Shown: positions 40,210 to 58,986, counted from the first letter of the stretch. The stretch: DNA of 64,000 bases from Hespellia sp. (GCA_028694105.1 JAQUUC010000005.1:37700-101699), one strand, 5' to 3'. A program made the numbers and translations. Notes: a model not told the origin generated them from the sequence alone.

Positions 40210-40229
40210 TTGTTTTCAAAGAAGAATTC

Positions 40230-41207
40230 TTAACTGCTCTTCGTCCTTTGAAACAGCTTTGAAAATACGAGAATACTGAGACATGCCACAGCCACTCCGA
40301 TCAGATTCGCCACCACACGGATTCCAACCGCCCTGTCCGCAGGGAATATCAGAACCGCTGTAATCAGCGCACTAAACGAATTGTAAATCGTTTTGATAAA
40401 ATAGGAAGTAATGAACATCGACAAAAATCCTGCCAAGAGTACGATCATCACCTGATACTGCGTCGGCACGAAGGTTTCAAACAGCGTAAATACAACCACA
40501 CTTCCTATAATCGTAGCGGGTACTCTGCGTATCATCCGGTTTTTATATTCCGCCTCCAACGGCGTACTTAAAGAAAGAACCGTCAGCGCAATCCACATAG
40601 TCTTCGGAAAATGTACCAGTTCACCGACCAGCATAACAATGCATAAGGTACTCACCAGACGTATGTACCACTGTGTCCTTGTCGACTCCAGACGGTTCTC
40701 CAAAAACAAATCTTTGATGGTCCGTTTCTGTGTGGTCTTCTTATGTGCAGCATAATATAGAAGTGCTACCACTACGCCGCCAGCCAGCAGGCTGATCCAG
40801 CGTTTTTGGAATGCAATTCCGGTAACATCATATCCCTGCAGCATGATGTATCCCATCGTAAAGGGAAGATTTCCGCTCTGGGAAAGATCATGTCCCGAAA
40901 ATATCATGATTGCCGACAATGATACAGCGTTCACGATGAAACCAAGCACGGGATGAATCAGTGAAAGCTTCGGTGCAAATGCAAGTATCGCAAACAATAC
41001 TGCAATACAGACGGATGCCTGCTTCACGCGATACCCCAGATCAGCACCCAATAAAATCAGCATCCCCATCAGCAGTACCACACCGACGATACTGTTTTCC
41101 GTTCCACACAGCCAGTTATAGCCGTTTATAAATAGTACACAAAACAAAAATACCGGCAATTTCCTGATTACTTCTGTTCCTGTCTGTTTTATCTTTTTTG
41201 AATCCAT
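40230..41207 (-). CDS. FUSC-like (aromatic acid exporter family) membrane protein
   Basis: About 10 hydrophobic segments. P..MWIALTVLS...R..ATIIG and RV.AN.IG patterns. Confidence 0.7.
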   Translation of the reverse strand: MDSKKIKQTGTEVIRKLPVFLFCVLFINGYNWLCGTENSIVGVVLLMGMLILLGADLGYRVKQASVCIAVLFAILAFAPKLSLIHPVLGFIVNAVSLSAIMIFSGHDLSQSGNLPFTMGYIMLQGYDVTGIAFQKRWISLLAGGVVVALLYYAAHKKTTQKRTIKDLFLENRLESTRTQWYIRLVSTLCIVMLVGELVHFPKTMWIALTVLSLSTPLEAEYKNRMIRRVPATIIGSVVVFTLFETFVPTQYQVMIVLLAGFLSMFITSYFIKTIYNSFSALITAVLIFPADRAVGIRVVANLIGVAVACLSILVFSKLFQRTKSS

Positions 41208-41331
41208 ATTCTGCCCCTTTGATCTTCTTGAAATTACATCTGATTTTTAAGATGCAATGAACAATTATAGTGGCTAATGGGAAAATGTGCAATACGGTAT
41301 TTTATTAAATTTTTCCAAACTTATGAACTCC

Positions 41332-42030
41332 TTATCGTGTCGACTGCACAGAAGGAAGCAGACATTTTGCAATCACCTGATTTCCTAATACATTCGGATG
41401 CACCCCGTCCGCGTAATATTCCGGATGTCCCTCCGTAATCTGATATAAATCAACAAGGGTAACTTGGTGATTCTTCGCCTGACGCAGGACAATCGGTCTG
41501 ATCTCATCGCGGATTACATCATTTTGAATCGCAAATGCAATCTCACCTTTTCCATTTGCAGACACTGCAAACGGCGGCGTCATTACAATGAGCCGCCCAT
41601 CTGCCGATTCCTTTTTTAACAGTTCTATCATTTCCGATAATTCCGCTTCGTATTTCTCTGCGTTCCAGTTCTGTGGCTTCGAATCATTCGTTCCAAGCAT
41701 CAAAATGAATAGCGCAGGATGAATGTCAATCGCTTTTTTCAGGAAATCCGCTCTGTATGGCAGGTTGCCGTCTTTTAATAAGGTCGCGCTGCTGATGCCA
41801 TAATTGAGCACCTGATATTTCTTTTCTAAAAGGTCTTCCAGCAGCCTTACCCAGCAGTCCTTCTCTCTCGTTGATCGCACGCCTGCACCAAATGTGATGC
41901 TGTCACCAATACATACAATGCATGGCTTCTTTCCGTTCGCTTTCTCTTTTCTCGGGAGTAAGCGGTTTAAAACTTTTCCGAATATCATACATATGGTTGC
42001 TGTAAGGATTACTAGTTTTACGATTGACAT
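41332..42030 (-). CDS. SGNH/GDSL-family esterase with an N-terminal membrane anchor
   Basis: CIGDSITFG (block I), LGTND (block III), DGVHPN (block V). GGAGG RBS. Own promoter TTGCTT(42090)-16 bp-TATAAT(42063). Confidence 0.9.
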   Translation of the reverse strand: MSIVKLVILTATICMIFGKVLNRLLPRKEKANGKKPCIVCIGDSITFGAGVRSTREKDCWVRLLEDLLEKKYQVLNYGISSATLLKDGNLPYRADFLKKAIDIHPALFILMLGTNDSKPQNWNAEKYEAELSEMIELLKKESADGRLIVMTPPFAVSANGKGEIAFAIQNDVIRDEIRPIVLRQAKNHQVTLVDLYQITEGHPEYYADGVHPNVLGNQVIAKCLLPSVQSTR

Positions 42031-42098
42031 GAACTTCCGCCTCCATTGAATAGAATACTTTTATTATAAAGAACTCTGTTCAAAAAGCAACCTGCTTT

Positions 42099-43658
42099 TC
42101 ACTTCTCTGCCTCAAAATATTCCCGAAATAAATATGCCGGTGTACAGCTCCATGCATGACAATAACTATTAACACATACGCCCCCATATGGACTTTCGTT
42201 CTCATTATCAGGGTTATACAACTCCCAGAAGGTGTCGGCTCCGGCTTTGATCATGCCTCCCCAATACTGCTTTATATGATTTAATGCTTTTTCTGGATTT
42301 CCTGCCCGAATCCATGCCTCTGCATAAAAATGGTGCATATAAGGGGTTATCATTGTAATTAAAGTGTTTTTCGTTCTCTCCAGAAGTTTCAATGCTTCTT
42401 CTTGTTCTACCACTCCTGCCAGAATCATCCACACCTGACTGGCCAACGATACTTGCCTTTCTTTTCCACTGACAAACACTTGCTTCTCATCTTCCCAAAA
42501 TATCTGCCGTGCAGCCTGTTTTAATTTTTCTTCCAGTGACTTATACGCTTTTCTTCCAACATAATCACCCAGAATTTTGCACAGTTTCTGTGCATACCCC
42601 ACGGTATAAATCAACACAGCCTCCATAGCACATTGTTTCTCTAACTGTTCATTCCAATCGATAAAGCAGTGATAAATTCCGTTTCCACAATTAACACCTT
42701 CTTCACATATAATCCCTTGTTCGTCCGTATAGGCAAGTGCTAATTCTATCTGATGAAATGCAGATGGAGCCAGTTCTTCCACAGTCTCTCTATCTCCTGT
42801 ATTCTCATAATATTCCACAAGAACAGGCAGAAAGAACAATGCATAATCCAGCAAAAATGTATCATCCATCAATGGCACCGGTTTTTCAAAGACACAGGCC
42901 GGAATCATTCCCTCCTGATTTGGCATCCCGGCAAATAAATAGAGGCAGCGTTTCACCAGGTCCTGCTGTCGAAAGGTCTGATAATTGACCAGCGCCTGCA
43001 GTCTGACGTCCCCGAGCCAAAGCCTTCTGTCACGTTTAGGTCCATCCTCAAACACCGTCTGCATACAGTTCTTCAAAGTACGCACCGATACTTCATCAAT
43101 CTCTTTGAGCTGTTCATCCATCGTCTGAATGGGACTGACCGTCCCATAGGCTGATGACACAGAAACTCTCTTCACTTCATTGAAAGAGATTTCGAATTTC
43201 TGGGAAGTATCAATTACCGTAATCACCGCATAGCGAAATGCATATCTGCGTTCCAGCTTCACATGCCGCGGTGTTTCATCTATATGAATCCATTCTTCCT
43301 GAATCCATCCCTTACTAATCCACCCACTGTAATTTTGACAGTCTTCATCAATCTCACGTTCTATCTCGCAAAATTTGATGTGCAAAAAAACAGGGGCATC
43401 CTGAGGACTTCCCACACATTTTATATGAAATTGAAAATACCCCGCATGATTGTGTCCAAAATCAAAGATGATTTTATCATCCTTTCCAAATCCTGCATTT
43501 GCTTTTTCATTTGCAATTTTCTGTTCTGCTTTGTAGGAAATAATCTCCACCGGAACTTCTTCTTTATGATATAATTTTGGAATCAATGCTTCTGCCTTTT
43601 GAATAAATTCCTCATTTTTTACCATGACAGCTTTTTCTACAGCCCAATCAGTTGCCAT
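42099..43658 (-). CDS. GH78-like alpha-L-rhamnosidase (short, cytoplasmic)
   Basis: DFG..HAG, FEDGPKRDRRLWLGD, FIDW, ADTFWE, SYCHAWSCTP. Confidence 0.85.
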   Translation of the reverse strand: MATDWAVEKAVMVKNEEFIQKAEALIPKLYHKEEVPVEIISYKAEQKIANEKANAGFGKDDKIIFDFGHNHAGYFQFHIKCVGSPQDAPVFLHIKFCEIEREIDEDCQNYSGWISKGWIQEEWIHIDETPRHVKLERRYAFRYAVITVIDTSQKFEISFNEVKRVSVSSAYGTVSPIQTMDEQLKEIDEVSVRTLKNCMQTVFEDGPKRDRRLWLGDVRLQALVNYQTFRQQDLVKRCLYLFAGMPNQEGMIPACVFEKPVPLMDDTFLLDYALFFLPVLVEYYENTGDRETVEELAPSAFHQIELALAYTDEQGIICEEGVNCGNGIYHCFIDWNEQLEKQCAMEAVLIYTVGYAQKLCKILGDYVGRKAYKSLEEKLKQAARQIFWEDEKQVFVSGKERQVSLASQVWMILAGVVEQEEALKLLERTKNTLITMITPYMHHFYAEAWIRAGNPEKALNHIKQYWGGMIKAGADTFWELYNPDNENESPYGGVCVNSYCHAWSCTPAYLFREYFEAEK

Positions 43659-43694
43659 TTATTTTCCCTCCAATTTCTTTTCCGAAACAATATT

Positions 43695-46001
43695 TTACAC
43701 TATTCTGGAATTTAGTAGTTGTATCATTGCCTCTATCTCCGAATCCTGCAGCGTCTCATCTACACGTTTTAATGTATTGAATGTCATCAGAGCACCCATT
43801 GAAATTGATTTCAATGGATCTTCATCCTTTGTCATTTCCAGAAACCCCAGTGAAACCGGATGCCTCTGAAACGCCTGCTCAAGTCGCTCATACATTCCTT
43901 CCATCCGAATCATATCCCCAATACTACTATCCTCCGTTATTTGGGGCTGCTTTCCCTGAATGGTTATATTTTCGCTATATCTTATATCCTGCACTGATCT
44001 TCCCACTGAAATTTCGTATACTCCAGTTTCCACGTTCCATCTTTGTTCCTGCGGTTGATAACGCATAAATGCTTTCTCGTCCAACTCAACAGACACGATT
44101 CTCTCTTCCCCCGGTTCCAGCAAGATTTTCTCGAAACCAGCCAGCTTTATCGGAAAGATGTTCTCTTTCGATGTATGTTTCTTGACATAGACTTGAATAA
44201 TTTCTTTTCCCTGACGTTCTCCACTGTTTTTTATGGTTACTTCTATTTTGCTTTTGGATATTTTGCAGGCTGCATATTCAAACTCAGTATAGGACAGTCC
44301 ATGCCCAAAGGGAAATGCCAATGGTTTCTTTTGCGCTTCATACTGCTTATATCCCACAAATCTTCCTTCCCCATATATGACCCGCTTTGTATCCCCCGGG
44401 AAATAAAGATAGCTGGGATTATCTTCCAGACATACAGGGAAGGTTTCTGCCAGCTTTCCAGATGGATTGATTTCACCAAACAGAATTTCTGCAATGGCTG
44501 ATGCACCGGATTCTCCGCCCAAATAGCTTTCTAATATAGCTTCTACATTTTTTCGCCATGGCATTTCTACTACAGAACCGTTTGCAAGTACCACAACCAC
44601 ATGACCTCCAAGCTCTGTCAGTTTCTCAATCAACTGATTCTGCTCCGCAGGCATTTTCATAGAATCCCGGTCATATCCTTCTGATTCAATCAAATCCGGA
44701 AGACCCGCAAATACCACCACGGTATCATACGCCACCGCAGCTTTAAGAACTTCCTGACACAGATTTTCATTTTCCTGCACGGAACCACCTGTTTTATAGC
44801 CGAAAAGAAAGTCTGTCTGCGTTCCCCGTTTCTGAAGTTCTTCCAATGGGATTTCTAATTTCCACGGGTTCACATGAGAGCTTCCGCCTCCCTGAAATCG
44901 AGGATGTATGGCTAGTTCTCCGGTCACAAGAATGCGTGATTTCTTATCCAGCGGCAGTATTTTATCTTTGTTTTGCAGCAGAACCATACTTTCTTCTGCC
45001 AGTTCCCGGGCAAATGCATGGTGCTTATTCCTGTCATACCTATCACCAGCGGCACTTGTTTCTTTCTTTGCGGCCCCCGCTTCTAAAGCAAATACAATGT
45101 TATGCTGAACAGCCTCATCCAGCTGGGCTTCAGTAATTTCTCCATCATGAATCAATTTCAGAACACGTTCCACAATTCGTGCTTCACCTTCGCCCGGCAT
45201 TTGAAGTGTCAATCCATTACGAATTCCCTGACCAAGTCTATGGGCTGCATAACAGTCTGTCACCACAACACCTTCATATCCCCAATCTTTACGCAGTATC
45301 TGAAGTAGCTTAGGATTGCTTGCACAAAACTCACCGTTCAGCTGGTTATATCCCATCATCACCATCTTAGGTCTGCCCTCTTTCACCGGTTTTTCAAATG
45401 CTGACAGGTACACTTCCTGAAGCGTTTCTTCTTCGATTTCTGCATTGATATTCATACGTCTCGTTTCCTGATTGTTCGCTGCAAAATGTTTCAGGCAGGC
45501 TCCCACACCTTCCGTTTGTATTCCTTTGATAAATTCAGTAGCGAGTTCTCCTGTCAGATATGGATCTTCGGAATAATATTCAAAGTTCCTTCCTCCAAGA
45601 GGACTCCTCTTAATATTCACAGCAGGAGCAAGCATCGTATCTACGTCCTCCTGCCTTGCTTCTCTCCCCATATGTTCCCCTAGTCTATACAAGAGTTCCC
45701 GGTTCCATGAACTTGCATAGGTACTCGGGGATGGGTAACAGGTGCTTGGTCTTGTGTTATAAATGTCGTCATCAAAATAATCTTTTAGTCTGCGAATTCC
45801 AGCCGGACCATCCGCCAAAAGAAATTTTTTTAAATCTTCATGTATTTTTTTGATATCTGTTGTTTCCCAGACAATCTGCGACAATAATTTTGCTTTGTCT
45901 TCCAGCCTCAGTTCCTTTACAATCTTTCTTGCAGTAACTTTGCACGCACTATCCATCACTGTTCCACCTCCATTTAGCAACTCATTCCTTCTCTGTTTCA
46001 C
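43695..46001 (-). CDS. GH3 beta-glucosidase-like protein
   Basis: DGPAGIR, RNFEYYSEDP, KHFAANNQE, VVTD nucleophile region, ESEGYDR, PFGHGLSYT. Confidence 0.92.
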   Translation of the reverse strand: MKQRRNELLNGGGTVMDSACKVTARKIVKELRLEDKAKLLSQIVWETTDIKKIHEDLKKFLLADGPAGIRRLKDYFDDDIYNTRPSTCYPSPSTYASSWNRELLYRLGEHMGREARQEDVDTMLAPAVNIKRSPLGGRNFEYYSEDPYLTGELATEFIKGIQTEGVGACLKHFAANNQETRRMNINAEIEEETLQEVYLSAFEKPVKEGRPKMVMMGYNQLNGEFCASNPKLLQILRKDWGYEGVVVTDCYAAHRLGQGIRNGLTLQMPGEGEARIVERVLKLIHDGEITEAQLDEAVQHNIVFALEAGAAKKETSAAGDRYDRNKHHAFARELAEESMVLLQNKDKILPLDKKSRILVTGELAIHPRFQGGGSSHVNPWKLEIPLEELQKRGTQTDFLFGYKTGGSVQENENLCQEVLKAAVAYDTVVVFAGLPDLIESEGYDRDSMKMPAEQNQLIEKLTELGGHVVVVLANGSVVEMPWRKNVEAILESYLGGESGASAIAEILFGEINPSGKLAETFPVCLEDNPSYLYFPGDTKRVIYGEGRFVGYKQYEAQKKPLAFPFGHGLSYTEFEYAACKISKSKIEVTIKNSGERQGKEIIQVYVKKHTSKENIFPIKLAGFEKILLEPGEERIVSVELDEKAFMRYQPQEQRWNVETGVYEISVGRSVQDIRYSENITIQGKQPQITEDSSIGDMIRMEGMYERLEQAFQRHPVSLGFLEMTKDEDPLKSISMGALMTFNTLKRVDETLQDSEIEAMIQLLNSRIV

Positions 46002-48000
46002 AGCTATTATTTTTGATCATAACCGCTTTCCCCTTATAGAGAGGATATGTGTTTCCACAATACGTTAAACTTCCACCATCTCTGTCAGTTTCGATCCTCA
46101 ATTGGTTTTCTCTCCATTCCACATAGACACTTCCATTCTTCACCGGAAGCCTGCAGCTGATTTCGCGAAACATTTTTATATTTGGAGATATTTCAAAAGT
46201 TTCATATCCAGTACTTGTTGGTTTCAATCCTATATAATATCGGCCAAGAAGATAGATGGGACTTGCAGCCCATGCATGGCAAAGGCTCTTCCCGTAAGGG
46301 TCTCCATACATTTCATATTCCTTCCCGTTCTCCTTAGCCGGATCATATTCTTCCCAGAAAGTAACCGCTCCCTGCGTCAGCATGCCACCCCAGTACGCTC
46401 TGATTTTCTTCAGAACCTCTTCCTGCTTTCCAAGAAGACACATGACCTCCAACTCATAAAATTTAAAATACGGGGTCGTAATTTGGGGGACCTTTTCATT
46501 TTGGAGGACATGACGGCAAATCTGAGTGGTCCTTTTCTCGTCTGCAATTTCAAACAAAATAGCGAAGATATTGGCATGTCTGGATACGTGACGTTTCCCT
46601 GAGGTATAACTATCAATATATGCCTGTTTTTCAACATCCCAGTAAAATGCATTAATGCTAGAGATAAGCCGTCTGTATTTCAGTTCATATTCGTGGTTCG
46701 GATCCCCTAATAGTTCTGCTGCAAAATTCATGGCATGATAACAGGCTGCCAGCAGCATCTGTTCTGCACATACCGGCCCGTCTTTATCAATCTCCGCCCA
46801 GTCTATGAAGATCCAGTCATTCTTTCTTCCTACAAGAAATCCATTCTCGTCCAGTTGACTTTCTAAAAATTCCATCATCGTCACCATCCGGGGGTAAATC
46901 ATTTCCAGAAATTCCCGGTCAGCCGTCATCTCATAATGTTTTCCAATTCCCAACACCCAATACATAGAGTAATCTACAATTGTATTGATATGCTGACGCA
47001 CCGGATCATTTCCACGCAGTGCCAATATTGTCCGTTTATTAATCTCCTCATCAAAAAACACATATGGATTCACAAAATATGACTGGTAGGCATCCCCTGA
47101 CCAGATCCATCTGTCACGCTTTACACCATCAATAAAAAAGATTCCGCTGCACAGCTGAAATGTACGAACAGATGTCTCCCATATCTGATTGATTTGTTTA
47201 TCCTCACAGTAAAATGCTGCTTTGACCGGGATATCCACATAGAGATGACGTGCACAAAGTATACAGTCCTCGCTCCCTGTCTCAGGAATAAACACATATC
47301 GAAATGCCCTTCTTCTAAGACAGATTTCCAAGGATTCTATTGTTTCGCTATAATAGCAGTTGATTGTATCCATTGCTTCTTCCTGAGATTCTCCGTAACA
47401 AATTAATTTATGGATACCTTTCTCTGTTTTGGAAAGAACCTTTACGTCCAGCTCCGCAGTAAGTTCCGTTCCAAAATCATACAGCGTTCCCCCATTTTTC
47501 TCAGCCACCATAACTGGTTTGATCGTCTGTTCCTCATATTCCCAGATTGCCGGATTCTGTTCCGATTCCCTGTATCGTTCATTCCACCCAGCATTAACCG
47601 GTTCTGTAATAAAGTCATCTGCCATCCATCCTGCACCTGTATAGATTACTTCCCCCTGCACTAAAATTGCTGGCACAAGATCAGGACTGCCTGCAAATAC
47701 TTCTACTTTTACCATTCCAGGTACTATCCTGATTTGATCTTGGAACTTATGTTTCTGTCCATTTATACACACATACCCCTGACAGTTTGCAAACACAGTA
47801 CATTGCGTATTCGCCTCAATTAAATACGTTTTCTGAAAGTGGACATTCTTTCTGCAGCCATCAATCTGCCAATAAGCTGGCCAGAAAAATTCTCGTTCTT
47901 CTCTGCTGAAATTCTGCAGCATACCATGATAGATTTCAAAATCACCGGGATACCAGATCCATCTTCCCTTTGAACAGCTGCATTCGTTTTCATAGTCCAT
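45982..48000 (-). CDS. GH78-like alpha-L-rhamnosidase (second paralog)
   Basis: YDFG.E, FIDGVKRDRWIWSGD, FIDW, TFWEEY, SLCHAWAASP. Start set at ATG 48000. Confidence 0.85.
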   Translation of the reverse strand: MDYENECSCSKGRWIWYPGDFEIYHGMLQNFSREEREFFWPAYWQIDGCRKNVHFQKTYLIEANTQCTVFANCQGYVCINGQKHKFQDQIRIVPGMVKVEVFAGSPDLVPAILVQGEVIYTGAGWMADDFITEPVNAGWNERYRESEQNPAIWEYEEQTIKPVMVAEKNGGTLYDFGTELTAELDVKVLSKTEKGIHKLICYGESQEEAMDTINCYYSETIESLEICLRRRAFRYVFIPETGSEDCILCARHLYVDIPVKAAFYCEDKQINQIWETSVRTFQLCSGIFFIDGVKRDRWIWSGDAYQSYFVNPYVFFDEEINKRTILALRGNDPVRQHINTIVDYSMYWVLGIGKHYEMTADREFLEMIYPRMVTMMEFLESQLDENGFLVGRKNDWIFIDWAEIDKDGPVCAEQMLLAACYHAMNFAAELLGDPNHEYELKYRRLISSINAFYWDVEKQAYIDSYTSGKRHVSRHANIFAILFEIADEKRTTQICRHVLQNEKVPQITTPYFKFYELEVMCLLGKQEEVLKKIRAYWGGMLTQGAVTFWEEYDPAKENGKEYEMYGDPYGKSLCHAWAASPIYLLGRYYIGLKPTSTGYETFEISPNIKMFREISCRLPVKNGSVYVEWRENQLRIETDRDGGSLTYCGNTYPLYKGKAVMIKNNSCETEKE

Positions 48001-48002
48001 CT

Positions 48003-49610
48003 TTATTCCTCCCACATCAGCTCTGGATTCAGTCTTATCCGGATGACCTGCCCGTCATGTACATATAACTGGTAATTTGCTTCATCCCCATTTCTTTCAT
48101 ATTCGCACACCCATGTATCACCTTCAAAGTGCCCCTCTTCTATGCTCAGAAAATTAAGCTGGGATGACAGACTGGATGCCAAATGTGCATACGGTGTTTC
48201 ATCTTCTACTTCTGGTCTGCGTAAAAAAGTAAAACATACTCCAGCACCCGCCAGATAAAATTCGCCCTCTCCGCAATCAATAATCAATCCTCTCCCCCTA
48301 ATATTCATGCAGGTCGCATTCTCTGGGGCATTGGTATTGATACGGCTTCCAAAATAATGCTGAGGTTTTGGAGCATTCTGTAAAAATCGTGCCGTAATAT
48401 GATAATCCTCTGTCTTCACATACTGCCAGCTGGAGTATTCTGCCTGCGTAACTGCATATACACGCCCAGTACCTCTATATTTTATAAGAATCGGTGCCAG
48501 AGAGGATACAATACGCATGGAACAGGCGGTTTCTTTTCCATCCTCAAGAAGACGCCCCTCCCAGATCTGGCTTTCTGCTCCAAAACAGCAAAATCCGATT
48601 GCACCATATTCTGCAACAGCGATTAGCATATTCAAGGCCGCCCCCACTCCACCATTTAGTGACTCCGGAATGAACAGCGGGTTATCATCTCTTGCATATG
48701 CTGCGCAGACTTTCCGGAAATCCCGTTCAGCCGGAAGGTAAATATCAGGTCCAAACAGCCGAATGGCCGGTGCAGTCCGCTTCCATATATCCAATACTTT
48801 ACTTACCGGTCCTCCTGAAATATAGCAGAGTCCCGGTTCTTCGTATTCATTCACTTCAGCCGAAACATTCATCAAATAGGCAACCGGAAACACGTTCTCT
48901 CCTGCCTCCGCCATTTCCTGTACATAACGCGCATGCTCCCACGCGCAGAAAGCTTCGTTGGCATATCTTCCAAACTGTTGTTTCCATGTTCTTTCTGTTG
49001 TATCTGGCAAATGACTGACTCCACAGTCTGGGATTATTATGTCCTTCAGCAAATAAGGAATCGGATTGTCATATGCATTCTGAGCCTCTGCTCCATAATC
49101 ACGATCTGTATGTACCAGTCCTATCTCATTTTCCACCTGCACACCAATGACCGTTCCCTCTGTATCATATTCTGCAAGAAATTCCATCGCCTTCACAAAA
49201 GCCTTCTTATCGCGTTCTAAAGTTGCCCTGCAATTTGGTGCCAGCGATTCCACCGGAAGTCCCGCAGAATTCCTTGCCCTTCTGTAAACTTTGCAATTTT
49301 TCTTTATGTATTCCGGGGCATATGTAAACAGTCCGTTTTTACTTGCCCCAAACCAAAGCAGAATCAAATACAAGCCTGCCGCCCCAGCTTTATCTACCAG
49401 CTCTTTCACCTGTTGCATCTCATAAACATCTTCCACAGCCTCAACCTTGCACCAATAAACAGGTGCCTCCAGCAGATTTCCGCCATGCAGATGGATTGCC
49501 TCTATGGTGCTGTCAATCAGCGGCGTACCAGTGGAAGAATTGTGGCATTGCAGTCCTGTTAGAAATACCGGTTCCCCTTTTCTATTTTTTAGAAAATCTT
49601 GTTTATGCAT
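48003..49610 (-). CDS. GH35-like/DUF5597 beta-glycosidase (beta-galactosidase or transglucosidase-like)
   Basis: G...HNSS, PVYW..VE, LLWFG..KNG, VQVENEIG, FIPES, C-terminal EEG.F...W.....NGDE. Start set at ATG 49610. Confidence 0.75.
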   Translation of the reverse strand: MHKQDFLKNRKGEPVFLTGLQCHNSSTGTPLIDSTIEAIHLHGGNLLEAPVYWCKVEAVEDVYEMQQVKELVDKAGAAGLYLILLWFGASKNGLFTYAPEYIKKNCKVYRRARNSAGLPVESLAPNCRATLERDKKAFVKAMEFLAEYDTEGTVIGVQVENEIGLVHTDRDYGAEAQNAYDNPIPYLLKDIIIPDCGVSHLPDTTERTWKQQFGRYANEAFCAWEHARYVQEMAEAGENVFPVAYLMNVSAEVNEYEEPGLCYISGGPVSKVLDIWKRTAPAIRLFGPDIYLPAERDFRKVCAAYARDDNPLFIPESLNGGVGAALNMLIAVAEYGAIGFCCFGAESQIWEGRLLEDGKETACSMRIVSSLAPILIKYRGTGRVYAVTQAEYSSWQYVKTEDYHITARFLQNAPKPQHYFGSRINTNAPENATCMNIRGRGLIIDCGEGEFYLAGAGVCFTFLRRPEVEDETPYAHLASSLSSQLNFLSIEEGHFEGDTWVCEYERNGDEANYQLYVHDGQVIRIRLNPELMWEE

Positions 49611-50961
49611 AGTCAAACCCTTTCTCCTTACACACTTGGGCATACCATTTCCCACTATCCTTGATCACTCTTTTTTGTGTCTCAAAATCTACATGTGTCA
49701 GTCCGTACCGCGATTCAAAGCCACTGTTCCATTCCCAGTTATCCAGAAGTGACCAGACGTAATACCCTCTGACATCATGCCCCTCTTCGATTGCCTTGTG
49801 TATCCAGTAAAGAAATCCTTCCATATACCGGATACGTTCCGCATCATGCACGCAGCCATCTGCCTCTGGATCTTCATTATAAGACGGCGTACCATTCTCG
49901 GTTACATAGATTGGAATATCCAGTTCATAGTCTTGTTTCAAGATCTGAATCGCATCGTAAACTGCCTTTGGATAAAATTCATTTCCGTTATCTTGAAAAT
50001 TTCCACCCAGCCGTTTCTGCCTTCTCTCCTCTTCCATGATCTTCTCATCGGCACAATCTACCACCCGGTTATAACAATTCAGTCCAAAGAAATCCAAAGG
50101 CTGCTTCATGTACTCCAAATCTCCCTCCTGAATCTCTGGCATACACCGATTTTCTTCCATATATTTTAACAACGCCTCTGTATAAGCTCCTTTGAAAATA
50201 GGGTTCAAATAAGAACGATATGTTTTTTCATTTTCCAATTCTGCAATTCGAATGTCATTTATATTCTCTTTTCGCAAAGGATGGTGATTCCAAATATCTA
50301 CAACAATTCCGATTTTCCCATCCTTTCCCCCTTCTTCACGGAACCGCTTCACACCTTCTCCATGAGCAAGAAGAATATGATGATTTGCCTGACGGCCTTC
50401 TTTTTCTGAACAATGACCGGGGGCAAAGAAGCCTTGGGCATATCCCACATAAGTTGCAATGGGCTCATTGATGGTTGCCCACAGGGGAATTGAATCTGCA
50501 AAGGTCCGGTATAAAAGGGAGGCGTATTCTCCATACCAGTTCACAATATCCCGATTCAGCCAGCCGCCCTTTTCTTCCAGTGCCTGAGGCAGATCCCAGT
50601 GATACACCGTTGCATTGGGAACAATCTCCTGCTTATGCAGTTCCTCCACAAGACGTTTATAATAATCTAATCCTTTCTGGTTGATTTTTCCCGTTCCTTC
50701 TGGGAAGATTCTGGACCATGAGAAGGAAAAGCGAAAACTCTCTATATTTATTTTCTTTGCGATTTCCAGATCCGTAGAAAATGAGTGATAAAAATCGCAT
50801 GCTTTTTTTGGTGTACTTCCATCCGATATAGTTCCTTTTCTGGCTGCAAATGTATCCCAGATAGAGGCCCCTCTTCCGTCTTCAAATGCACCGCCTTCAA
50901 TCTGAGCTGCACTGGTGGCAGTTCCAAATAAAAATGTTTCCGGCAACATAATCTTTTTCAT
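49603..50961 (-). CDS. GH1 beta-glucosidase
   Basis: FGTATSAAQIEG, RFSFSWSRI, YHWDLPQ, TINEP (acid/base), VTENG (nucleophile), WSLLDNWEW. Confidence 0.95.
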   Translation of the reverse strand: MKKIMLPETFLFGTATSAAQIEGGAFEDGRGASIWDTFAARKGTISDGSTPKKACDFYHSFSTDLEIAKKINIESFRFSFSWSRIFPEGTGKINQKGLDYYKRLVEELHKQEIVPNATVYHWDLPQALEEKGGWLNRDIVNWYGEYASLLYRTFADSIPLWATINEPIATYVGYAQGFFAPGHCSEKEGRQANHHILLAHGEGVKRFREEGGKDGKIGIVVDIWNHHPLRKENINDIRIAELENEKTYRSYLNPIFKGAYTEALLKYMEENRCMPEIQEGDLEYMKQPLDFFGLNCYNRVVDCADEKIMEEERRQKRLGGNFQDNGNEFYPKAVYDAIQILKQDYELDIPIYVTENGTPSYNEDPEADGCVHDAERIRYMEGFLYWIHKAIEEGHDVRGYYVWSLLDNWEWNSGFESRYGLTHVDFETQKRVIKDSGKWYAQVCKEKGFDYA

Positions 50962-50968
50962 AGTATAC

Positions 50969-51796
50969 CTATCCTTTCACAGCTCCGGCTGTCATACCGG
51001 CCACCACTTGTTTTTGTAAAACGAGGAAAATAAGAACAACTGGAATCATTGCAATAACTGCTGCTGCAAAGGCAGTATTATAATCCGCACCATATGCTCC
51101 AAAGAATACATATTGCTGCATTGGAATTGTTTTAATCGCTTCATCCTGAAGTAAAAGAATGGACACATTAAATTCATTCCAAACTGCCAGAAACTGCAAT
51201 GTTGCTACCGTTGCCAAAATAGGTTTCAAGAGTGGAAATATAACGGTAAAGAAAATGCGAAATCTTCCTGCCCCTTCCATTTCTGCTGCCTCTTCCAATT
51301 CGATTGGAATGCCACGGACAAATCCAATCATCATGACTGTTGAGTATGCAATTGCCATTCCTGAAATCATAATCACTGCTCCCACTCTTGTATCCAGCAG
51401 ATTCAAGTCCTTGTACATCCGATACACTGGTACCATAATAACCTGAAATGGAAGCATCATAGAACCAACTAACAAAGTTTCATAGAAGCGATAAAACCTC
51501 TTATGATATCTTCTTCCTATGGCATAAGCAGCTGTAGATGCAACCAGCAGAATAATAATCACGCTGCAGACGGTAATAATGATACTGTTTTTCATAGAAA
51601 GAAGAATCTTTGCTTTTTCTATTGCAACCGTAAAATTCTCCCAATGAATACTCTTCGGCAGCGATAGAATTGCCTTTGACGTTTCTTGTTTTGACTTGAC
51701 AGCCATCAAAATACAAATCAAAAATGGAAAGAGAAATATAACTGTCATTACCGCCAATGCTATTTTCGATAGAATCCCAACTCGATTTTCTTTCAT
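50969..51796 (-). CDS. Carbohydrate ABC transporter permease (MalG-like)
   Basis: EEAAEMEGA EAA loop, WNEF. Confidence 0.93.
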   Translation of the reverse strand: MKENRVGILSKIALAVMTVIFLFPFLICILMAVKSKQETSKAILSLPKSIHWENFTVAIEKAKILLSMKNSIIITVCSVIIILLVASTAAYAIGRRYHKRFYRFYETLLVGSMMLPFQVIMVPVYRMYKDLNLLDTRVGAVIMISGMAIAYSTVMMIGFVRGIPIELEEAAEMEGAGRFRIFFTVIFPLLKPILATVATLQFLAVWNEFNVSILLLQDEAIKTIPMQQYVFFGAYGADYNTAFAAAVIAMIPVVLIFLVLQKQVVAGMTAGAVKG

Positions 51797-52644
51797 TACG
51801 CTTCAACCTCCTTACTTCTGAAAAATTTTGTCAGAACAAGCCCTATAATCACCAGAAAGAACATGAATACAAGTGAAATCGCCTGTGCATACCCCGCTCT
51901 GGAATATTTAAACATATAGTCATAAATTAAGATAGCTACCGTCTGCGAAGAACCTGCTGGTCCTCCGCCTGTCGCTGCAAGAACTGTTCCAAACTCACGC
52001 AGTGAGGCAGTCAATGTCAAAGTAATACAAATGGTGAAAGAAGGCATCAGCATTGGCACTGTAATGTGAAAAAAACGTTGTCTTCCATTTGCCCCGTCAA
52101 TCATGGCAGCTTCCTCATAATCCTTTGAAATTCCCGTGATTCCGGCCATATAAATCATGACATTAGACCCCAAGTTGTTCCAAAGGGAAATCAAAATAAT
52201 ACCCAGTAGTACCGTTTCACGTTTTCCGAGCAACGAATGTCCAAACAGTGCAGACAGCATATTCGAGTCTATGTACTTCCAGACAAAGGATGCAAGCACT
52301 GCACTGATTGCCAGCGGTACAAAAAAGCTTGTTTTAAAGAATGCTTTTCCTTTTAGTTTCTTACTCAATGTCACTGCCAGAAACAAAGCCAGCACATTGT
52401 TGAGTGCGGTCACTCCCACCCCATATATTACCGTTGTTTTAATCGGCTGAACTACATTCCTATCAGACAAAAGTTTTATAAAATTATCAAATCCCACATA
52501 GTTATAGGTTCTTGATATTCCATCCCAGTCCGTAAACGCAAGCTGAATACCCGATATAAATGGATATGCGATACAGAATACAAACAAGAGCAGTGATGGA
52601 ATCAAAAACACAAAATAGCTTATTTCTCGTTTTATTCGTTTCAT
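51796..52644 (-). CDS. Carbohydrate ABC transporter permease (MalF-like)
   Basis: YVGFDNF, EEAAMIDGA, TGGGP. Confidence 0.93.
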   Translation of the reverse strand: MKRIKREISYFVFLIPSLLLFVFCIAYPFISGIQLAFTDWDGISRTYNYVGFDNFIKLLSDRNVVQPIKTTVIYGVGVTALNNVLALFLAVTLSKKLKGKAFFKTSFFVPLAISAVLASFVWKYIDSNMLSALFGHSLLGKRETVLLGIILISLWNNLGSNVMIYMAGITGISKDYEEAAMIDGANGRQRFFHITVPMLMPSFTICITLTLTASLREFGTVLAATGGGPAGSSQTVAILIYDYMFKYSRAGYAQAISLVFMFFLVIIGLVLTKFFRSKEVEA

Positions 52645-52658
52645 CTTTTCCTCTTTCT

Positions 52659-52743
52659 AAAAAAGGAGCTTCCGCATCCTTCAAATTCCCATATGCCTTT
52701 CTGGCATTCTCAATACGGGTATCTGTTCCTGCGACAGCTCCTT
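52659..52743 (-). other. Long stem-loop with a U-run between the SBP gene and first permease
   Basis: Minus strand aaggagct...agctcctt-tttt enclosing cccgta/tatggg and tgcc/ggca inner stems. Confidence 0.55.
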
Positions 52744-52756
52744 CATCCACTCATTC

Positions 52757-54055
52757 CTACTTTACAAGGTTATCGAAATCTGTATCCATGGTTTTCAATG
52801 CACCATCAATATCCTTACATCCATCCAGAAAGAATCCGGAAACATCATTGATAAAGGCATCTTCATTTGCACTCGGAAAACTCTTGGATGAAATAACTTT
52901 CACTTCTCCACTGTTCATGATTTCTGCGGCATCTTTAAATGCTCCTGTCAGATTTGATGTATCCACATCCTTTACAATTGGGATTCCAGCACCTTTCTCT
53001 GCATACAATGATGCTGATTCTGATGACATCATGTATTCTAAGAACTTCACAGCCTCATCCCTGTGAGGACTTTCTGCCGCAACTGCAACTGCAGATTCAG
53101 GAGGACACATTGGCATAATATTCTCCTCTTCATTTTCAGATAACGGAAGTGCAAAGATTCCCATTTCTGCATCCGGATTCATGGCCACTGCATTTGTAAC
53201 CGTCCATGTACCATTTAAAATCATTCCCGCTTCCGCATTTGCAAGCATAGAATAGCAGGTGTTCTGGTCAGTTCCAAACTGATCTTCATTCATAAATGGA
53301 TACATTTCCTGCATTTTTTTGTAAAAATCTTTCCACTGCTCTGTCTCTGCAAACTTGCTGCTTCTATCTACCATTTGTGCCAGTGTAGGTCCGTCTTTTG
53401 CAAGAACACTTGCACAATACACGGTCTGGGAAGTTCCATTTACAACCCATTGTTCTGAAAATCCAGATGCAATCGGTACAATTCCTTTTTTCTGAAGCTT
53501 CTCGCATGCTTCCATAAACTCGCTCCATGTATCCGGCACTTCCTTAATCCCTGCTTCTTCAAATGCTGTTTTGTTATAATTAACACACATAAAATCATTT
53601 GCAATTGGGAGTGCATATACTTTCCCATCTTTTGTAAAGCTGTCCAGCATTCCTTCTGAATAATTTTCCAAATTTGAGCTGTCACTTAAATCCTGTACAT
53701 ATCCACTTGGAACCATATCTGCCATGTCATTTGCCGAGAATGAAAATAAATCCGGCACATCCCCTGCGGCAAATCTGGTCATAACCGTCTGATTAAAACT
53801 GTCTATCGATGTTTTCTGGATTTCAATCTTAATATTGGGGTTTTCTTTTTCAAACCCTTCAATCACCTCATCCAGCCATGCCACATATTGCTCTTCCGCT
53901 GAGCCATTAATAAATTCCAATGTTACCTGTTCGCCTTCTTCATTTGAGACATCTTCGGATTTTATTGTTTCCTCAGAACCTTTCTTTCCTCCGCATGCTG
54001 TCATACTAAACACCATTGCACACGCAAGCACAGCTGCTAATACTTTTCTTTTCAT
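52757..54055 (-). CDS. Carbohydrate ABC transporter solute-binding lipoprotein
   Basis: Lipobox MTA-C. Family-1 SBP motifs (GDVPDLF, DGKVYALP, YNK..FEEAG). Confidence 0.92.
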   Translation of the reverse strand: MKRKVLAAVLACAMVFSMTACGGKKGSEETIKSEDVSNEEGEQVTLEFINGSAEEQYVAWLDEVIEGFEKENPNIKIEIQKTSIDSFNQTVMTRFAAGDVPDLFSFSANDMADMVPSGYVQDLSDSSNLENYSEGMLDSFTKDGKVYALPIANDFMCVNYNKTAFEEAGIKEVPDTWSEFMEACEKLQKKGIVPIASGFSEQWVVNGTSQTVYCASVLAKDGPTLAQMVDRSSKFAETEQWKDFYKKMQEMYPFMNEDQFGTDQNTCYSMLANAEAGMILNGTWTVTNAVAMNPDAEMGIFALPLSENEEENIMPMCPPESAVAVAAESPHRDEAVKFLEYMMSSESASLYAEKGAGIPIVKDVDTSNLTGAFKDAAEIMNSGEVKVISSKSFPSANEDAFINDVSGFFLDGCKDIDGALKTMDTDFDNLVK

Positions 54056-54148
54056 ATCCTTACCTCCTGATTTTGTTTGTTTCCTTTTGATGTCTCTATT
54101 TTATAATATTTTACTCGATTTTTATTTTCACTTTTTTCAGTTTTTGCC

Positions 54149-54189
54149 AAAAAAGCCATGGTATTTTAGGATTGAAATACCACAGCTTT
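54149..54189 (-). terminator. Intrinsic terminator after the response regulator gene
   Basis: Minus strand gc-tgtggtattt-caatccta-aaataccatg-gc followed by T6. Confidence 0.7.
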
Positions 54190-54258
54190 CTTTTTATAAC
54201 TACATTTGTTGATTCGTCTATATAAATTCTTTATATTTCTTTTAATTTCTTTAGTTTC

Positions 54259-55755
54259 TTAGCTCTGCAGCGTTTTTTTTGCTGTTCTCTGGCGATACTC
54301 CTGTATGGTAACACCTGTCTGTTTTTTAAAGATAGTGCTAAAATAGGAACCATTCCCAAAACCAACCCGTTCCGCGATCTCATAATTCTTAAGTCCGGTA
54401 GTGACGATTAATTCTTTTGCTTTTTCAATTCTTATCTCATTTAAATATTCCGGAATGCTTTTCCCTATATCACGTTTAAATATTCCCGAAAAATAGCTTT
54501 CATTTAACGCTGCCGTCTCGGCAATTTCTCCCAATGACAAATCACTTGTATAGTTCTGCTTTATATACTGAATAGCCTGCTGCACGCTCGGATGAATTGC
54601 ATTCTGCATCTCCTCCGCAAATATATGAGCTAAATACTGCTGACAAGCCTGATGTTTATCCCATACCAGACGATGTTCTGAAAGGGCCTCTTTGATTTTT
54701 GCAAATTCTAACTTTCCGATTTCTATATTTAGATTTCCAGCCACCATATTGAGAAACTGAAGATAATTTCTCTGTATATGTTCTTCCGAAGGCATCTGCA
54801 TACAAATTGTCTCTGTTAACCCTTCCAATGTGGCTTCTGCCTCCTGCCTTGTATAAATTCCACTAAAAAGCTGAGGATCCTCCATGTACAGTTTGTTCCG
54901 CTTTTTTACACGCTCTTTTTCAGTCTCCCATATTCTGATTTTGTTCTTGTTGGAGAAGGTCCCTATCTCAATAACTTCCCTCACTTCTTCCGACAATGCA
55001 TGAAGCTTCTCAATGTCCGAGCCTCTCTTACTGCAACCTCCAAGATAGGACTCTTCCACCAGCATGCATTCTAACTCTCGAAGGACTTGATTTTGATCTT
55101 CAAACTGTACTTTCTGGCTATGTTCCTTTTTGACCGGAAGAAATACTATATGTTCTTTTTTATCATGCAGTTCTAAAAGGCTTCTTTCCAGCCAGAAGGA
55201 TTTTCTCCCCGCAACCGAAACCCACTCGCCATTCAGATTCTCAATCTTACATATGTAATATCCCCACTGATCATTCAGACATAATTCCAAATACTTTCTG
55301 GCTGGTCCATTCTCTCTTTCTCCATTCAGGAGGTTTCTAATTCCTTCCCGAACTTGACTATCAGATGCCATGTCTTTTAAATGCTTTTCCCAACAGTTCT
55401 GAACGATTGCTCCCACATTTTCTTTTTCGATATCCTGCTTTAGAATATAATCCTGTGCTCCCAGTTTCAGAGATTCCTTTACAAACTCAAAATCATCGTA
55501 AGCAGACAACGCAATAATCAGAATCTCAGGATATTTTTCTTTCAATTCACCTGTCAGGTCTATGCCGTTCATAACAGGCATACTCATATCAGTAATAACA
55601 ACCTCTACCGGCTGTGTTTCCAGAAACTCCAGCGCTGCCGCCCCATGAACCGCTTCGCCTGCAATTTCAAATCCGTACGCTTCCCAATCAATCACTTTTT
55701 TCACTGCAAAACGAAAATATTTATCATCCTCTACGATCAATACTCTCTTTTTCAT
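54259..55755 (-). CDS. Response regulator with AraC-type output domain (YesN-like)
   Basis: VLIVEDD, ITDMSMP.MNG, DYILK, C-terminal AraC HTH. Confidence 0.93.
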   Translation of the reverse strand: MKKRVLIVEDDKYFRFAVKKVIDWEAYGFEIAGEAVHGAAALEFLETQPVEVVITDMSMPVMNGIDLTGELKEKYPEILIIALSAYDDFEFVKESLKLGAQDYILKQDIEKENVGAIVQNCWEKHLKDMASDSQVREGIRNLLNGERENGPARKYLELCLNDQWGYYICKIENLNGEWVSVAGRKSFWLERSLLELHDKKEHIVFLPVKKEHSQKVQFEDQNQVLRELECMLVEESYLGGCSKRGSDIEKLHALSEEVREVIEIGTFSNKNKIRIWETEKERVKKRNKLYMEDPQLFSGIYTRQEAEATLEGLTETICMQMPSEEHIQRNYLQFLNMVAGNLNIEIGKLEFAKIKEALSEHRLVWDKHQACQQYLAHIFAEEMQNAIHPSVQQAIQYIKQNYTSDLSLGEIAETAALNESYFSGIFKRDIGKSIPEYLNEIRIEKAKELIVTTGLKNYEIAERVGFGNGSYFSTIFKKQTGVTIQEYRQRTAKKTLQS

Positions 55756-57601
55756 CCTCTGGCATCCTTTCCGGAATAATAAGTGTCACTGTGGTTCCTT
55801 TTCCGGGTTCACTTTCTATGTGATATTTGAACTCTTCACCATACACCATTTTTAAACGTTGTATAATATTAGTAACTCCAATTCCATTAAAGCCTTTGTA
55901 CTTTTCTGTTTTATTTTCTTCCATTTTTTGTTTTAATTCAAACAGCTTTTCTTCTGACATTCCAAAACCATTGTCTGCCACTGTCAGACAAAGTTTTCCT
56001 CCATCTATCGCTCCGGTTATTCGTATGATTCCACCTTTTTTGGCAATGTCCAATCCATGAAGAATACTATTTTCAATAAAGGGCTGGAGTACAAATCCAA
56101 TCATTTTAAACTGCATAGCATCCTCTGTTATCTGCATCTCCACTTCAAAGTTATCCTCATACCTCATTTTCTGGATATACACATAGTGTTCTATGTAATT
56201 AAGTTCTTCTTTTAGAGAGATATCCTGATTTGCATTTTTTACTGTAAACCGAAGTAGATTAATAATCGCATCTGCCAGTTTTGCAATTTCTTCCTGATCC
56301 TTTTCATATGCAAGCCATTTTAACGAGCCAAGAGTATTATATAAGAAATGGGGGTTAATCTGTGCTTCCATCACTTGGTATTGCAAATCCTGCTTTTCCT
56401 CTTCCTCTCTTCGTGCCAGTTCATTTAGCTTATTAATTTTCAGCCCCATATGATTGAACTGCAGAATTAACATGCCGATTTCATCATATGCCGCAGGTGA
56501 GAGCAGTCTGGAATAATTTCCTGTCTCATACTGTCTCATTCCCTGTTCTATAATCTTAAGGTTCTTTTGCAGCGCCCTTTGGATGAAGAAACACAGCAAT
56601 AAACCCAGTGCCAGCAAGATTCCTGTTGTTACTAAAATCTTCGGCACTACCTGATTTGCCTTCTCTAAAATCACTGTCTGGGGAATCACACACAGCATAT
56701 TCCATTGAGAACGAACTGTCTTCATAGGAACTACCAGATAATTTGCCCCATTGATTTGCTGCATGGTTGCATAGATATAATAAGCTGAATCCTTATACGA
56801 AAAATAATGATTCAATTGCTTTTCATCCATCTTCAGAGAATTATTTTTATAAATGGAGCCATCTGTTCCACATATAATCAAATTCTGATTGGACACATAC
56901 AAATTTTCATCCTCCTCCAGCTGAAAAAAGGAATCTGACATTGTAAAGATAACCGTCCCGATTGTTTCTATCTCTCCGTTCGTCCCCTGCTGCGTAATGC
57001 GCCGCACAAAATACACTTCGTTGCCTTCCTTCACCCAGCCTGCCGGGGAAGTAGAAGTAACCCGCCCCCGGAGCAGTTCCAGCTTCTCTTCGGCCATAGA
57101 CCTATTCATCTTTTCTCCTGCAGTAGACTGGCTATAATAATAAAGCTCTTTGCCTTTAGATTCTACCATAACAGAATCCGAATAGTTATGCAGCACCGTA
57201 TATCCCAAAAATGTACTTGTAAGCTTCGCCTGATTTAACGAATATTCCAGTTTATTCATCTCCGCCAAATCCCCGTCATCCAGAAGCGCATATATCGCCG
57301 TCATGGAAGCAAACGAATAAGAAGTATCCTGAAACTCCCTGATTCGCTCCTCCATTCTAGTGCCAAGCTGCTTTAATAAACTGATTGCTGAATCCTCAGC
57401 TGTATCAATCAAAGCATCCTTCATAGAAATATAACTGATACTCCCAATAACACTGCTACCGATAACCGCTACCAAGACAAGATAAACAGTCAGTTTCGTA
57501 CGGATTTTCGAGTCTCGTATCTTCTTCCAGATATAGAGTGGAAAAATCAAAAATGGCAGACTCTTTTTTGGTCCTTTGTCAGAATATTTTGTCATCTCCA
57601 T
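55724..57601 (-). CDS. Sensor histidine kinase (YesM/LytS-like, Cache + HAMP)
   Basis: Two TM helices, HAMP (DEIG.L...FN.M), AQINPHFLYNTL, LQPFIENSILHG, GIGVTNI, GKGT. Confidence 0.93.
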   Translation of the reverse strand: MEMTKYSDKGPKKSLPFLIFPLYIWKKIRDSKIRTKLTVYLVLVAVIGSSVIGSISYISMKDALIDTAEDSAISLLKQLGTRMEERIREFQDTSYSFASMTAIYALLDDGDLAEMNKLEYSLNQAKLTSTFLGYTVLHNYSDSVMVESKGKELYYYSQSTAGEKMNRSMAEEKLELLRGRVTSTSPAGWVKEGNEVYFVRRITQQGTNGEIETIGTVIFTMSDSFFQLEEDENLYVSNQNLIICGTDGSIYKNNSLKMDEKQLNHYFSYKDSAYYIYATMQQINGANYLVVPMKTVRSQWNMLCVIPQTVILEKANQVVPKILVTTGILLALGLLLCFFIQRALQKNLKIIEQGMRQYETGNYSRLLSPAAYDEIGMLILQFNHMGLKINKLNELARREEEEKQDLQYQVMEAQINPHFLYNTLGSLKWLAYEKDQEEIAKLADAIINLLRFTVKNANQDISLKEELNYIEHYVYIQKMRYEDNFEVEMQITEDAMQFKMIGFVLQPFIENSILHGLDIAKKGGIIRITGAIDGGKLCLTVADNGFGMSEEKLFELKQKMEENKTEKYKGFNGIGVTNIIQRLKMVYGEEFKYHIESEPGKGTTVTLIIPERMPEDEKESIDRRG

Positions 57602-57777
57602 CTTTTATCGATACTCCCTTCCGTACCGCCCAAAGCTCTGATTCCAAATCGGAACTATATTCAAAGACACTATTGCCCATACACTCTCTATTACAGCTGC
57701 TACAGTGCTATTATCTTATTCCTTTTTAGTTGCTTTAAGCCATCCTGCCTTTTCATTTCAAAAGTCCATAAATAATC

Positions 57778-57949
57778 TTCTATCATTTCCGACAATTCTG
57801 TTTCACATTTTCCCGCACATTCTCTCTCGTGGCTCACACGCCTGCACCAAATATGATGCTGTCACCAATACATACAATGCATGGCTTCTTTCCGTTCGCT
57901 TTCTCTTTTCTCGGGCGTAAGCGGTTTAAAACTTTTTTGAATATCATAC
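57778..57949 (-). pseudogene. Decayed copy of the SGNH esterase gene at 41332-42030
   Basis: 57820-57949 matches 41861-41990 at 123/130. 57778-57816 matches 41623-41661 at 31/39 (all transitions). About 0.2 kb in between is deleted. CGA>TGA stop and GDSIT>GDSII. Confidence 0.85.
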
Positions 57950-58252
57950 GTACGGTCTTTCTTTCTCGATAAGTTCCTGATAGACCGCATCCTCGCTGTA
58001 CTCTGGTGCATGGTCCTTTACTACATCTACAATACGGTGAATATATGATTCATCTTCTTCCAATGCATTCGCAATTGCAGCACAATCCTGTCCTTTTTGA
58101 ACTTTTTTTATAACCTGTTTCACCAGCTTTCGAACCTCTCCTTCAATCTTCGCATCCTCACGCATTCCTTCTAAAGCTTCACACACATTAATCGCCTCAC
58201 TTTCATCTTCATTCTTTGCTATACATTTTACAATTTCTTTTGCGTTTGTCAA
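57944..58252 (-). CDS. C-terminal fragment of an Rpn/PD-(D/E)XK-transposase-like protein (possible stand-alone small protein from GTG 58186)
   Basis: IALTNAKEI...N(V)CEALEGMREDA..EG...KLV....KK..KG.....IA..LEE..  pattern recalled from Lachnospiraceae Rpn C-termini. GAGG RBS 8 nt before GTG 58186. No nuclease domain present. Confidence 0.6.
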   Translation of the reverse strand: MTNAKEIVKCIAKNEDESEAINVCEALEGMREDAKIEGEVRKLVKQVIKKVQKGQDCAAIANALEEDESYIHRIVDVVKDHAPEYSEDAVYQELIEKERPYV

Positions 58253-58326
58253 CGCTATTTAAGTCCCCATATTTCAATTTTTCTTTGACTCATTTTTATT
58301 TGTGCATCAAACAAGCTTCTATACTG

Positions 58327-58942: not shown

Positions 58943-58957
58943 CTTATTCCTTTCTTT

Positions 58958-58986
58958 ATAATATTCCCAATTCGATATATTGTCAA
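58958..58986 (-). promoter_or_regulatory. SigA promoter of the toxin-antitoxin operon
   Basis: TTGACA-17 bp-TATTAT. Confidence 0.7.

Follow-up and report, generated by a model that had tools for sequence, protein, structure and literature searches.

Introduction

How does a whole operon for the use of glycosides come to lie between two copies of one esterase gene? The question is raised by a locus in the window, the stretch of 64,000 nt analysed here (Hespellia sp., GCA_028694105.1, JAQUUC010000005.1:37700-101699), in which a glycoside cassette (K, 57601..42099) is followed by an intact SGNH/GDSL esterase gene and preceded by a decayed relic of the same gene. A first-pass annotation had proposed that the cassette entered by homologous recombination through the esterase gene, used as a landing pad. 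Integration through this gene, either by a Campbell-type event or with one end only anchored by homology, is also the history that we favour, tentatively and with a confidence slightly short of even; the mechanism of the earlier annotation is plausible rather than demonstrated.

The source genome (G000) is a 3.2-Mb draft in which the locus lies on contig C75. It was compared with three genomes of other Hespellia species (G001–G003), four in all. Since all genes of the region are on the minus strand, as are the elements described with them, “upstream” means higher coordinates throughout. Genes were called by Pfam on all open reading frames (ORFs) of 96 aa or more between 61265 and 40230. Their order on this strand is: OmpR-type response regulator (RR), histidine kinase (HK), Gp49 toxin, HTH antitoxin, an ORF of 102 codons, esterase relic, cassette, SGNH esterase and FUSC_2. 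No recombinase, relaxase or transposase was found among these calls within or beside the block, and the gene content between the esterase copies, without an integrase, is as the first-pass annotation had described it.

Two Copies of One Esterase Gene

The intact gene (42030..41332) encodes a protein of 232 aa matching the profiles PF13472 (91 bits, E 1e-25) and PF00657 (74 bits). Its residues S44, G78, N115, D208 and H211 occupy columns that are invariant among its relatives, and its N-terminus is native, being a hydrophobic membrane-anchor segment common to these relatives. The start codon lies 25 nt downstream of Y, a foreign upstream piece that is considered below.

The relic consists of two blocks in direct orientation, with 15.96–16.16 kb between the copies. 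The repeat search paired 41861-41997 with 57820-57956 (93% over 137 nt) and 41623-41655 with 57778-57810 (85%). In the base-by-base alignment, the 137-nt core of block 1 contains 7 mismatches (95% identity), and the similarity continues for ~13 nt upstream of the core; over the full block (57969..57817, gene nt ~21–173), 131 of 153 positions (86%) are identical to 42010..41858, the longest perfect run being 62 nt (57915..57854 = 41956..41895). Block 2 (57816..57778, gene nt ~370–408) agrees with 41661..41623 at 31 of 39 positions (79%), and the differences are 8 transitions and 0 transversions. The repeats thus lie where they had originally been placed, with the same 7 mismatches, now counted in a 137-nt core, and the same 8 transitions in 39 nt. 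The blocks adjoin in the relic, whereas ~200 nt separate them in the intact gene, which corresponds to a deletion of ~0.2 kb; together with a CGA>TGA stop and a GDSIT>GDSII change, both read from the translated alignment, this was also part of the first description, and all three features are present in the base-by-base alignment. The relic stops at gene nt 408: nothing matches the last 290 nt of the gene, and a gap-tolerant alignment gave no credible match past 57778. At the other end, its in-frame ATG overlaps the stop codon of an Rpn remnant (ATGA).

The occurrence of two esterase copies here is far beyond chance. An assembly artefact is ruled out, as the copies differ, lie 16 kb apart within a contig of 102 kb and have unlike flanks. 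A second copy elsewhere in the genome was not found, and no near kin of the gene turned up in the databases searched: the exact sequences of the esterase and of the antitoxin had no match in the databases looked up, among 5.8 billion proteins no esterase relative exceeded 61% identity, and the scans of JGI metagenome contigs for the esterase motif KKPCIVCIGDSI and for the conserved end of the Rpn remnant returned 0 matches each. The nearest esterase relatives are located inside other glycoside loci, beside GH3 genes and sugar transporters, and because these closer relatives sit in such loci, it is natural for the esterase to adjoin one here. That the esterase is a native gene of this cassette is ruled out by two syntenic cassettes elsewhere that lack it.

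The anatomy fits insertion-duplication: upstream of the cassette stands a relic that has lost its 3′ part, and downstream of it a complete copy with a new 5′ flank. The crossover and the order of events that we infer would be the following. The resident site would have been an Rpn–esterase–FUSC_2 region in which fusion of the esterase to the Rpn remnant had already taken place, and the incoming DNA would have carried the cassette, then Y, then at least 408 nt of the 5′ part of an esterase allele. Host recombination would have admitted it either as a circle, via a single crossover, or as a linear piece, one end of which was anchored by esterase homology while the other was attached through an illegitimate joint. 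The resident copy would have been left upstream as a 3′-truncated relic and the downstream gene would have been completed with a new 5′ end, after which the relic would have decayed by the 0.2-kb deletion and the stop codon. The notion of the esterase gene as a landing pad agrees with this anatomy and is drawn from it.

Relatives without the Cassette Share One Scar

G003 is colinear with the window at 59505..57931 and 41361..40247 (92–94% identity), and six metagenome contigs from ERR and SRR runs (L042–L047) are colinear, by blastn, with 64000..57920 and 41361..30176 (89–91%). The FUSC_2 membrane protein gene (41207..40230, PF13515) forms the conserved right flank; its product is 93–95% identical at the amino-acid level in the empty-site relatives, and 93% in L042–L047. 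All seven relatives lack the segment 57919..41362 (16.56 kb) and have one common joint. This joint comprises 58 nt, of which the first 24 resemble the start of the relic and the other 34 are the last 34 nt of the esterase gene including its stop codon (27–28 of 34 identical). The left piece agrees with the relic at 17 of 24 positions, at exactly the expected place; none of 3000 random genome positions reached this score when the position was fixed (P<1/3000), and 1.1% of the trials did so when the match was allowed anywhere in a chunk of 770 nt. Similarity extends through the supposed left joint. The retained last 34 nt and the 24-nt relic match indicate that the esterase was already there when the lineages separated.

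At 41361/41362, the right break-point falls 260 nt past the last repeated segment. Because of this position, the empty alleles did not arise from recombination between the repeats, and the excision route offered by the first-pass annotation does not account for them; to judge from their sequence, the known empty sites are products of illegitimate deletion and not pop-outs between the repeats. Break-points unrelated to the repeats had been named in advance as the finding that would count against the proposal, and the outcome is half-way: the esterase copies contain the break-points, the repeats do not. The microhomology at the joints is ~5 nt (CTGCT/CCGCT are all that the joints have in common), and short identical end repeats of the att type, with one copy in the empty site, were not found. 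In the relatives, the deletion would have spared the first 24 nt of the relic and the final 34 nt of the esterase gene. The loss would have amounted either to the entire 16.56 kb or, if the cassette had never been present in the lineage, to 0.6 kb of a single esterase pseudogene.

The opposite polarity has also to be considered, in which the empty site is ancestral, the 16.56 kb were inserted in this lineage only and the last 34 nt of the esterase gene are a pre-existing target sequence. This would be the most parsimonious account of presence and absence alone, the esterase and the cassette being found in no other Hespellia or FUSC_2 context examined; the FUSC_2 tree, in which G000 groups with L042 and G003 stands outside (83/86 support), is in line with it, and the last gene of the cassette shows that an ORF at this locus can end in borrowed sequence. 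Nevertheless, we think it very improbable, as the relic start is matched, at the place expected, by the 24 nt to the left of the joint, the similarity continues through what would be the left joint and the two ends of the insert would both need to fall within copies of one gene. The left-flank tree groups G003 with L042, and because it conflicts in this way with the FUSC_2 tree the region is taken to be recombinant. The region upstream of FUSC_2 is a synteny break-point, with a different neighbour in every more distant relative examined.

The divergence of the relic from the intact copy is uneven, 5% in block 1 versus 20% in block 2 (Fisher p=0.006), and the 24 nt of the scar differ by ~29% from both copies, while the flanks differ by only 6–10%. 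The divergences of the two blocks, the scar and the flanks suggest gene conversion of block 1, which was probably homogenised from the intact copy.

In G003 (L025, G003:C26), a further 3.2 kb (59506-62728) with the OmpR-type RR, most of the HK gene and the sequence upstream is absent, and a 119-residue tail of the HK is retained. Because the L042-type contigs keep the OmpR-type RR and the HK, this is a second, independent deletion in G003.

Pieces of One Rpn Unit at Both Ends of the Block

The Rpn-like remnant at the 5′ end of the relic had been recognised at the outset, but that pieces of one Rpn gene unit stand at both ends of the block was overlooked. An intact Rpn unit in the genus consists of X (about 125–140 nt, structured), Y (~60 nt, promoter-like), a leader and the ORF. 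The source genome has such a unit on contig C42, and H. stercorisuis (G002) has one at the orthologous site, where what is left of the same HK gene precedes it. The G002 Rpn protein matches PF04754 with 25.6 bits (cut-off 21), and the C42 copy matches too.

Both X and Y were recognised in the window by their match to the intact units. X, a three-hairpin element (59006..59146), corresponds to unit positions 1–141 of G002 at 88% identity, and is 78% identical to the C42 unit; it follows the HK gene and is joined to the toxin–antitoxin pair and the Rpn tail instead of Y. Y (42112..42055, TTGCTT-17-TATAAT) corresponds to unit positions 142–201 at 88% by BLAST, and Y-type sequences stand upstream of Rpn on C42, on C4 and in G002. 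The consensus promoter scan did not call Y, the −35 hexamer of which scores 3/6. The third piece, R (58252..57944), is the open ORF of 102 codons, identified by tblastn and nucleotide identity as a C-terminal Rpn/YhgA-like remnant: it is 75% identical in amino acids to the full-length G002 protein (280 aa) over 40 residues (227–266; tblastn) and 68% identical in nucleotides over 265 nt to the full C42 copy (330 aa). R itself has no Pfam match and, being a C-terminal tail only, lacks the PD-(D/E)XK core; its sequence marks it as the remnant of a member of the Rpn/YhgA-like family and not as a member.

R is kept as a 101-aa ORF in G003 and L042–L047 and is provided with a promoter-like site (58252..58225, TTGACA-16-TAAAAT, 11/12). 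Rpn units in the genus are often internally deleted with the C-terminal part open: in L075 (G001:C126), X, Y and the leader are fused to Rpn residues 187–280, and in L077 (G002:C156) the Rpn gene is without residues ~72–139. Open C-terminal Rpn tails would fit the retention of an RpnS-like antitoxin.

The terminal GH78 gene of the cassette also takes its last 4–5 codons and its stop codon from Y (…gag gca gag aag tga, 42113-42099). As the alignment with its homologues stops at residue 513–514 of 519, these last codons are borrowed from the junction.

X and Y, 17 kb apart in the window, abut to the base in the intact units, between positions 141 and 142, and because they abut in this way a single event that separated them is favoured. 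This observation is the core of another history, in which the ancestor was X–Y–esterase–FUSC_2 and a block of 16.9 kb (59005..42113) entered the bond between X and Y without any esterase homology. The block would have consisted of the toxin–antitoxin pair, the Rpn remnant, the relic, the spacer and the cassette; the relic would be a passenger of an older arrangement, and the cassette-less relatives would be derivatives with the 16.56-kb deletion. Two independent breaks at most 3 nt apart in a unit of ~1.2 kb are expected in only ~0.6% of cases, the empty sites have the toxin–antitoxin pair and R beside X and lack Y, as deletion from the full state predicts, and the stop codon that the terminal GH78 gene borrows from Y marks an illegitimate joint. 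On the other hand, a coincidence is needed, namely that the block held a fragment of the very gene lying just downstream and also the C-terminal Rpn part that the resident unit lacks. Moreover, in G001 both X alone and a Y-like promoter alone are found beside unrelated genes, so X and Y may be separate modules and the boundary between them may be simply a module joint at which joining is tolerated. We consider insertion of such a block possible but doubtful.

A purely local history may be imagined as well, with a tandem duplication of Rpn and esterase, entry of the cassette into the duplication joint and complementary deletions thereafter, by which one copy lost Y and the N-terminal Rpn part, their place being taken by the toxin–antitoxin pair, as well as the esterase start, and the other lost the Rpn ORF. 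The junctions of the Rpn end with esterase nt ~21 and of Y with esterase position −25 would then be single deletions from an X–Y–Rpn–esterase precursor, and Rpn units with internal deletions are frequent in the genus; yet at least five events are required, no intermediate has been seen and the ending of the relic exactly at the start of the spacer and cassette is left unexplained. This history seems to us unlikely.

Integration through the esterase gene has in its favour a presence/absence polymorphism without a recombinase, ends that lie in esterase sequence and a fitting anatomy. Several points weigh against it, the separation of X from Y among them, since insertion of a single block explains their adjacency more simply than a crossover in the esterase gene. 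The empty site with one uninterrupted esterase gene that entry by homologous recombination predicts was seen in 0 of the 7 relatives, which have the scar only, and the structure of these known sites is not reciprocal to the integration event proposed. Neither a single uninterrupted-esterase allele nor a donor was found, the best outside matches being 61% for the esterase and 73% for the GH35-like protein. The simplest reading of the divergences is that the resident and incoming esterase alleles were ~75–80% identical where unconverted, which makes a poor substrate for RecA. Finally, the block has no foreign composition mark: its GC content is 41.3% versus 43.2% and its tetranucleotide distance falls at the 90th percentile, so the comparison of cassette and flanks that had been suggested with the original proposal is uninformative. 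The block may be either an old resident of a small clade or a gift of an unsampled donor.

The Rpn unit may be given a more active part. The breaks by which the operon was captured could have been made by the unit or drawn to it, and the locus would then record, in a gut Firmicute, a natural case of RecA-independent gene acquisition promoted by Rpn, with the unit split at a single bond, its promoter piece driving the esterase and its antitoxin-like ORF kept open in every lineage. We hold this combined proposal to be quite improbable; no sign that the Rpn nuclease made these joints was found.

Element X occurs at eight loci in the four Hespellia genomes: the window, C42:43492-43622, L027 (12330-12470), L075, L077, L079, L081 and L025 (9711-9852). 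Its consensus fold has three hairpins with 6 covarying base pairs, the X and junction region has no Rfam match, and X may be a small RNA or a regulatory leader. In H. stercorisuis (L027, G002:C71:158000-161474) the order is FUSC_2, M19 dipeptidase, HK remnant, X, Y, Rpn and contig end, and FUSC_2 stands on the opposite side of the Rpn unit compared with the window.

The Cassette and Its Immediate Surroundings

By Pfam, the cassette consists of an HK (57601..55724), an AraC-type RR (55755..54259), a solute-binding protein (SBP, 54055..52757), two permeases (52644..51796 and 51796..50969), GH1 (50961..49603), a GH35-like/DUF5597 protein (49655..48003), a first GH78 (48015..45982), GH3 (46001..43695) and the terminal GH78 (43658..42099). 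A sensor and regulator, an ABC importer with its SBP, several glycoside hydrolases and one direction of transcription are thus all present, as in glycoside loci generally, and the cassette probably serves the use of plant rhamno- and gluco-glycosides. It is an ordinary Gram-positive glycoside utilisation locus, of which the flanks alone are unusual.

The gene order from the HK to the last GH78 is conserved in two distant metagenome-assembled genomes (G177 and G178) at 54–87% amino-acid identity. Both of these cassettes have one GH78 gene, not two, and no SGNH gene at either end, and the comparison marks the cassette as an independent unit. At G177:C88:8464-10278 (L062/L066), the HK homologue heading the syntenic cassette has one in-frame TGA. 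Within the genus the block is present in one genome, a patchy distribution, and neither the cassette nor the esterase was found in G001–G003. The GH35-like protein has no outside relative above 73%; a single fragment with 85% identity belongs to a decayed related cassette (~75% nucleotide identity). That cassette, L072 (logan contig of SRR29713739, 1-5360), contains a GH1 fragment, GH35-like and GH78 genes with internal deletions and GH3, and is without the last GH78 and the transporters.

The spacer z (57777..57602, 176 nt), between the relic and the HK gene, has no match elsewhere in the genome, and no promoter-like site was called on its minus strand. On the other side of the relic, beyond R, lies the toxin–antitoxin pair, made up of a Gp49-family toxin (58993..58586, PF05973, E 7e-22) and an HTH_3 antitoxin (58617..58327, PF01381, E 2e-17) with a promoter-like site at 58986..58958 (TTGACA-17-TATTAT, 11/12); the pair has the same position in all empty-site relatives.

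Comparison with Known Systems

The locus shows the gain or loss of a whole plant-glycoside operon in gut Lachnospiraceae without a mobile-element enzyme, and gene relics record the event. Such relics could serve as markers of the turnover of utilisation loci driven by host recombination in Firmicutes, where the gain and loss of these loci has been mapped less fully than in Bacteroidota. The case is anecdotal, and its value is that of an example and of a lead on Rpn units, not of a new mechanism: the locus is an ordinary one of gain and loss, which recombination has shaped, and not a new kind of mobile element. In gene content and order, the cassette is like other Gram-positive glycoside loci and forms a conserved unit in other Lachnospirales.

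The closest likeness in anatomy is with Campbell-type insertion-duplication, as direct copies flank the insert, the upstream one is without its 3′ part, the downstream one has the incoming 5′ end and promoter and there is no site-specific recombinase. Unlike the Campbell-type integration of a cloned fragment, the event here would be a natural one, the insert is an operon of 15.5 kb, the copies are now only 80–95% identical, one of them is decayed and no empty site with a single copy was seen.

Homology-facilitated illegitimate recombination in transformation and conjugation usually deletes recipient DNA and concerns small linear pieces (PMC3240628). Our locus resembles it in having one homologous anchor, the esterase gene, and one illegitimate joint, that of esterase nt 408 with the spacer, with no mobile-element enzyme; it differs in that ~16 kb entered and the recipient sequence was kept as a relic.

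In Vibrio cholerae, sequential displacement of the effector–immunity modules of the type VI secretion system is reported to leave orphan relics (PMC5361080). The modules as described there likewise enter by recombination in a conserved neighbouring gene while remnants of earlier genes stay, but there the genes are effector–immunity genes and the relics form arrays, and here there are one metabolic operon and one relic.

Proteins of the Rpn family (YhgA-like, PF04754) promote RecA-independent recombination in E. coli (PMC5350276), and the rpn genes carry intragenic C-terminal antitoxins, RpnS (PMC10400941). A gene of this family was once present at our locus, its pieces mark both ends of the block and the open C-terminal ORF resembles the antitoxin part of the E. 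coli genes. In the E. coli work, however, recombination was measured in conjugal crosses and not at natural loci, and the local copy here is only a remnant.

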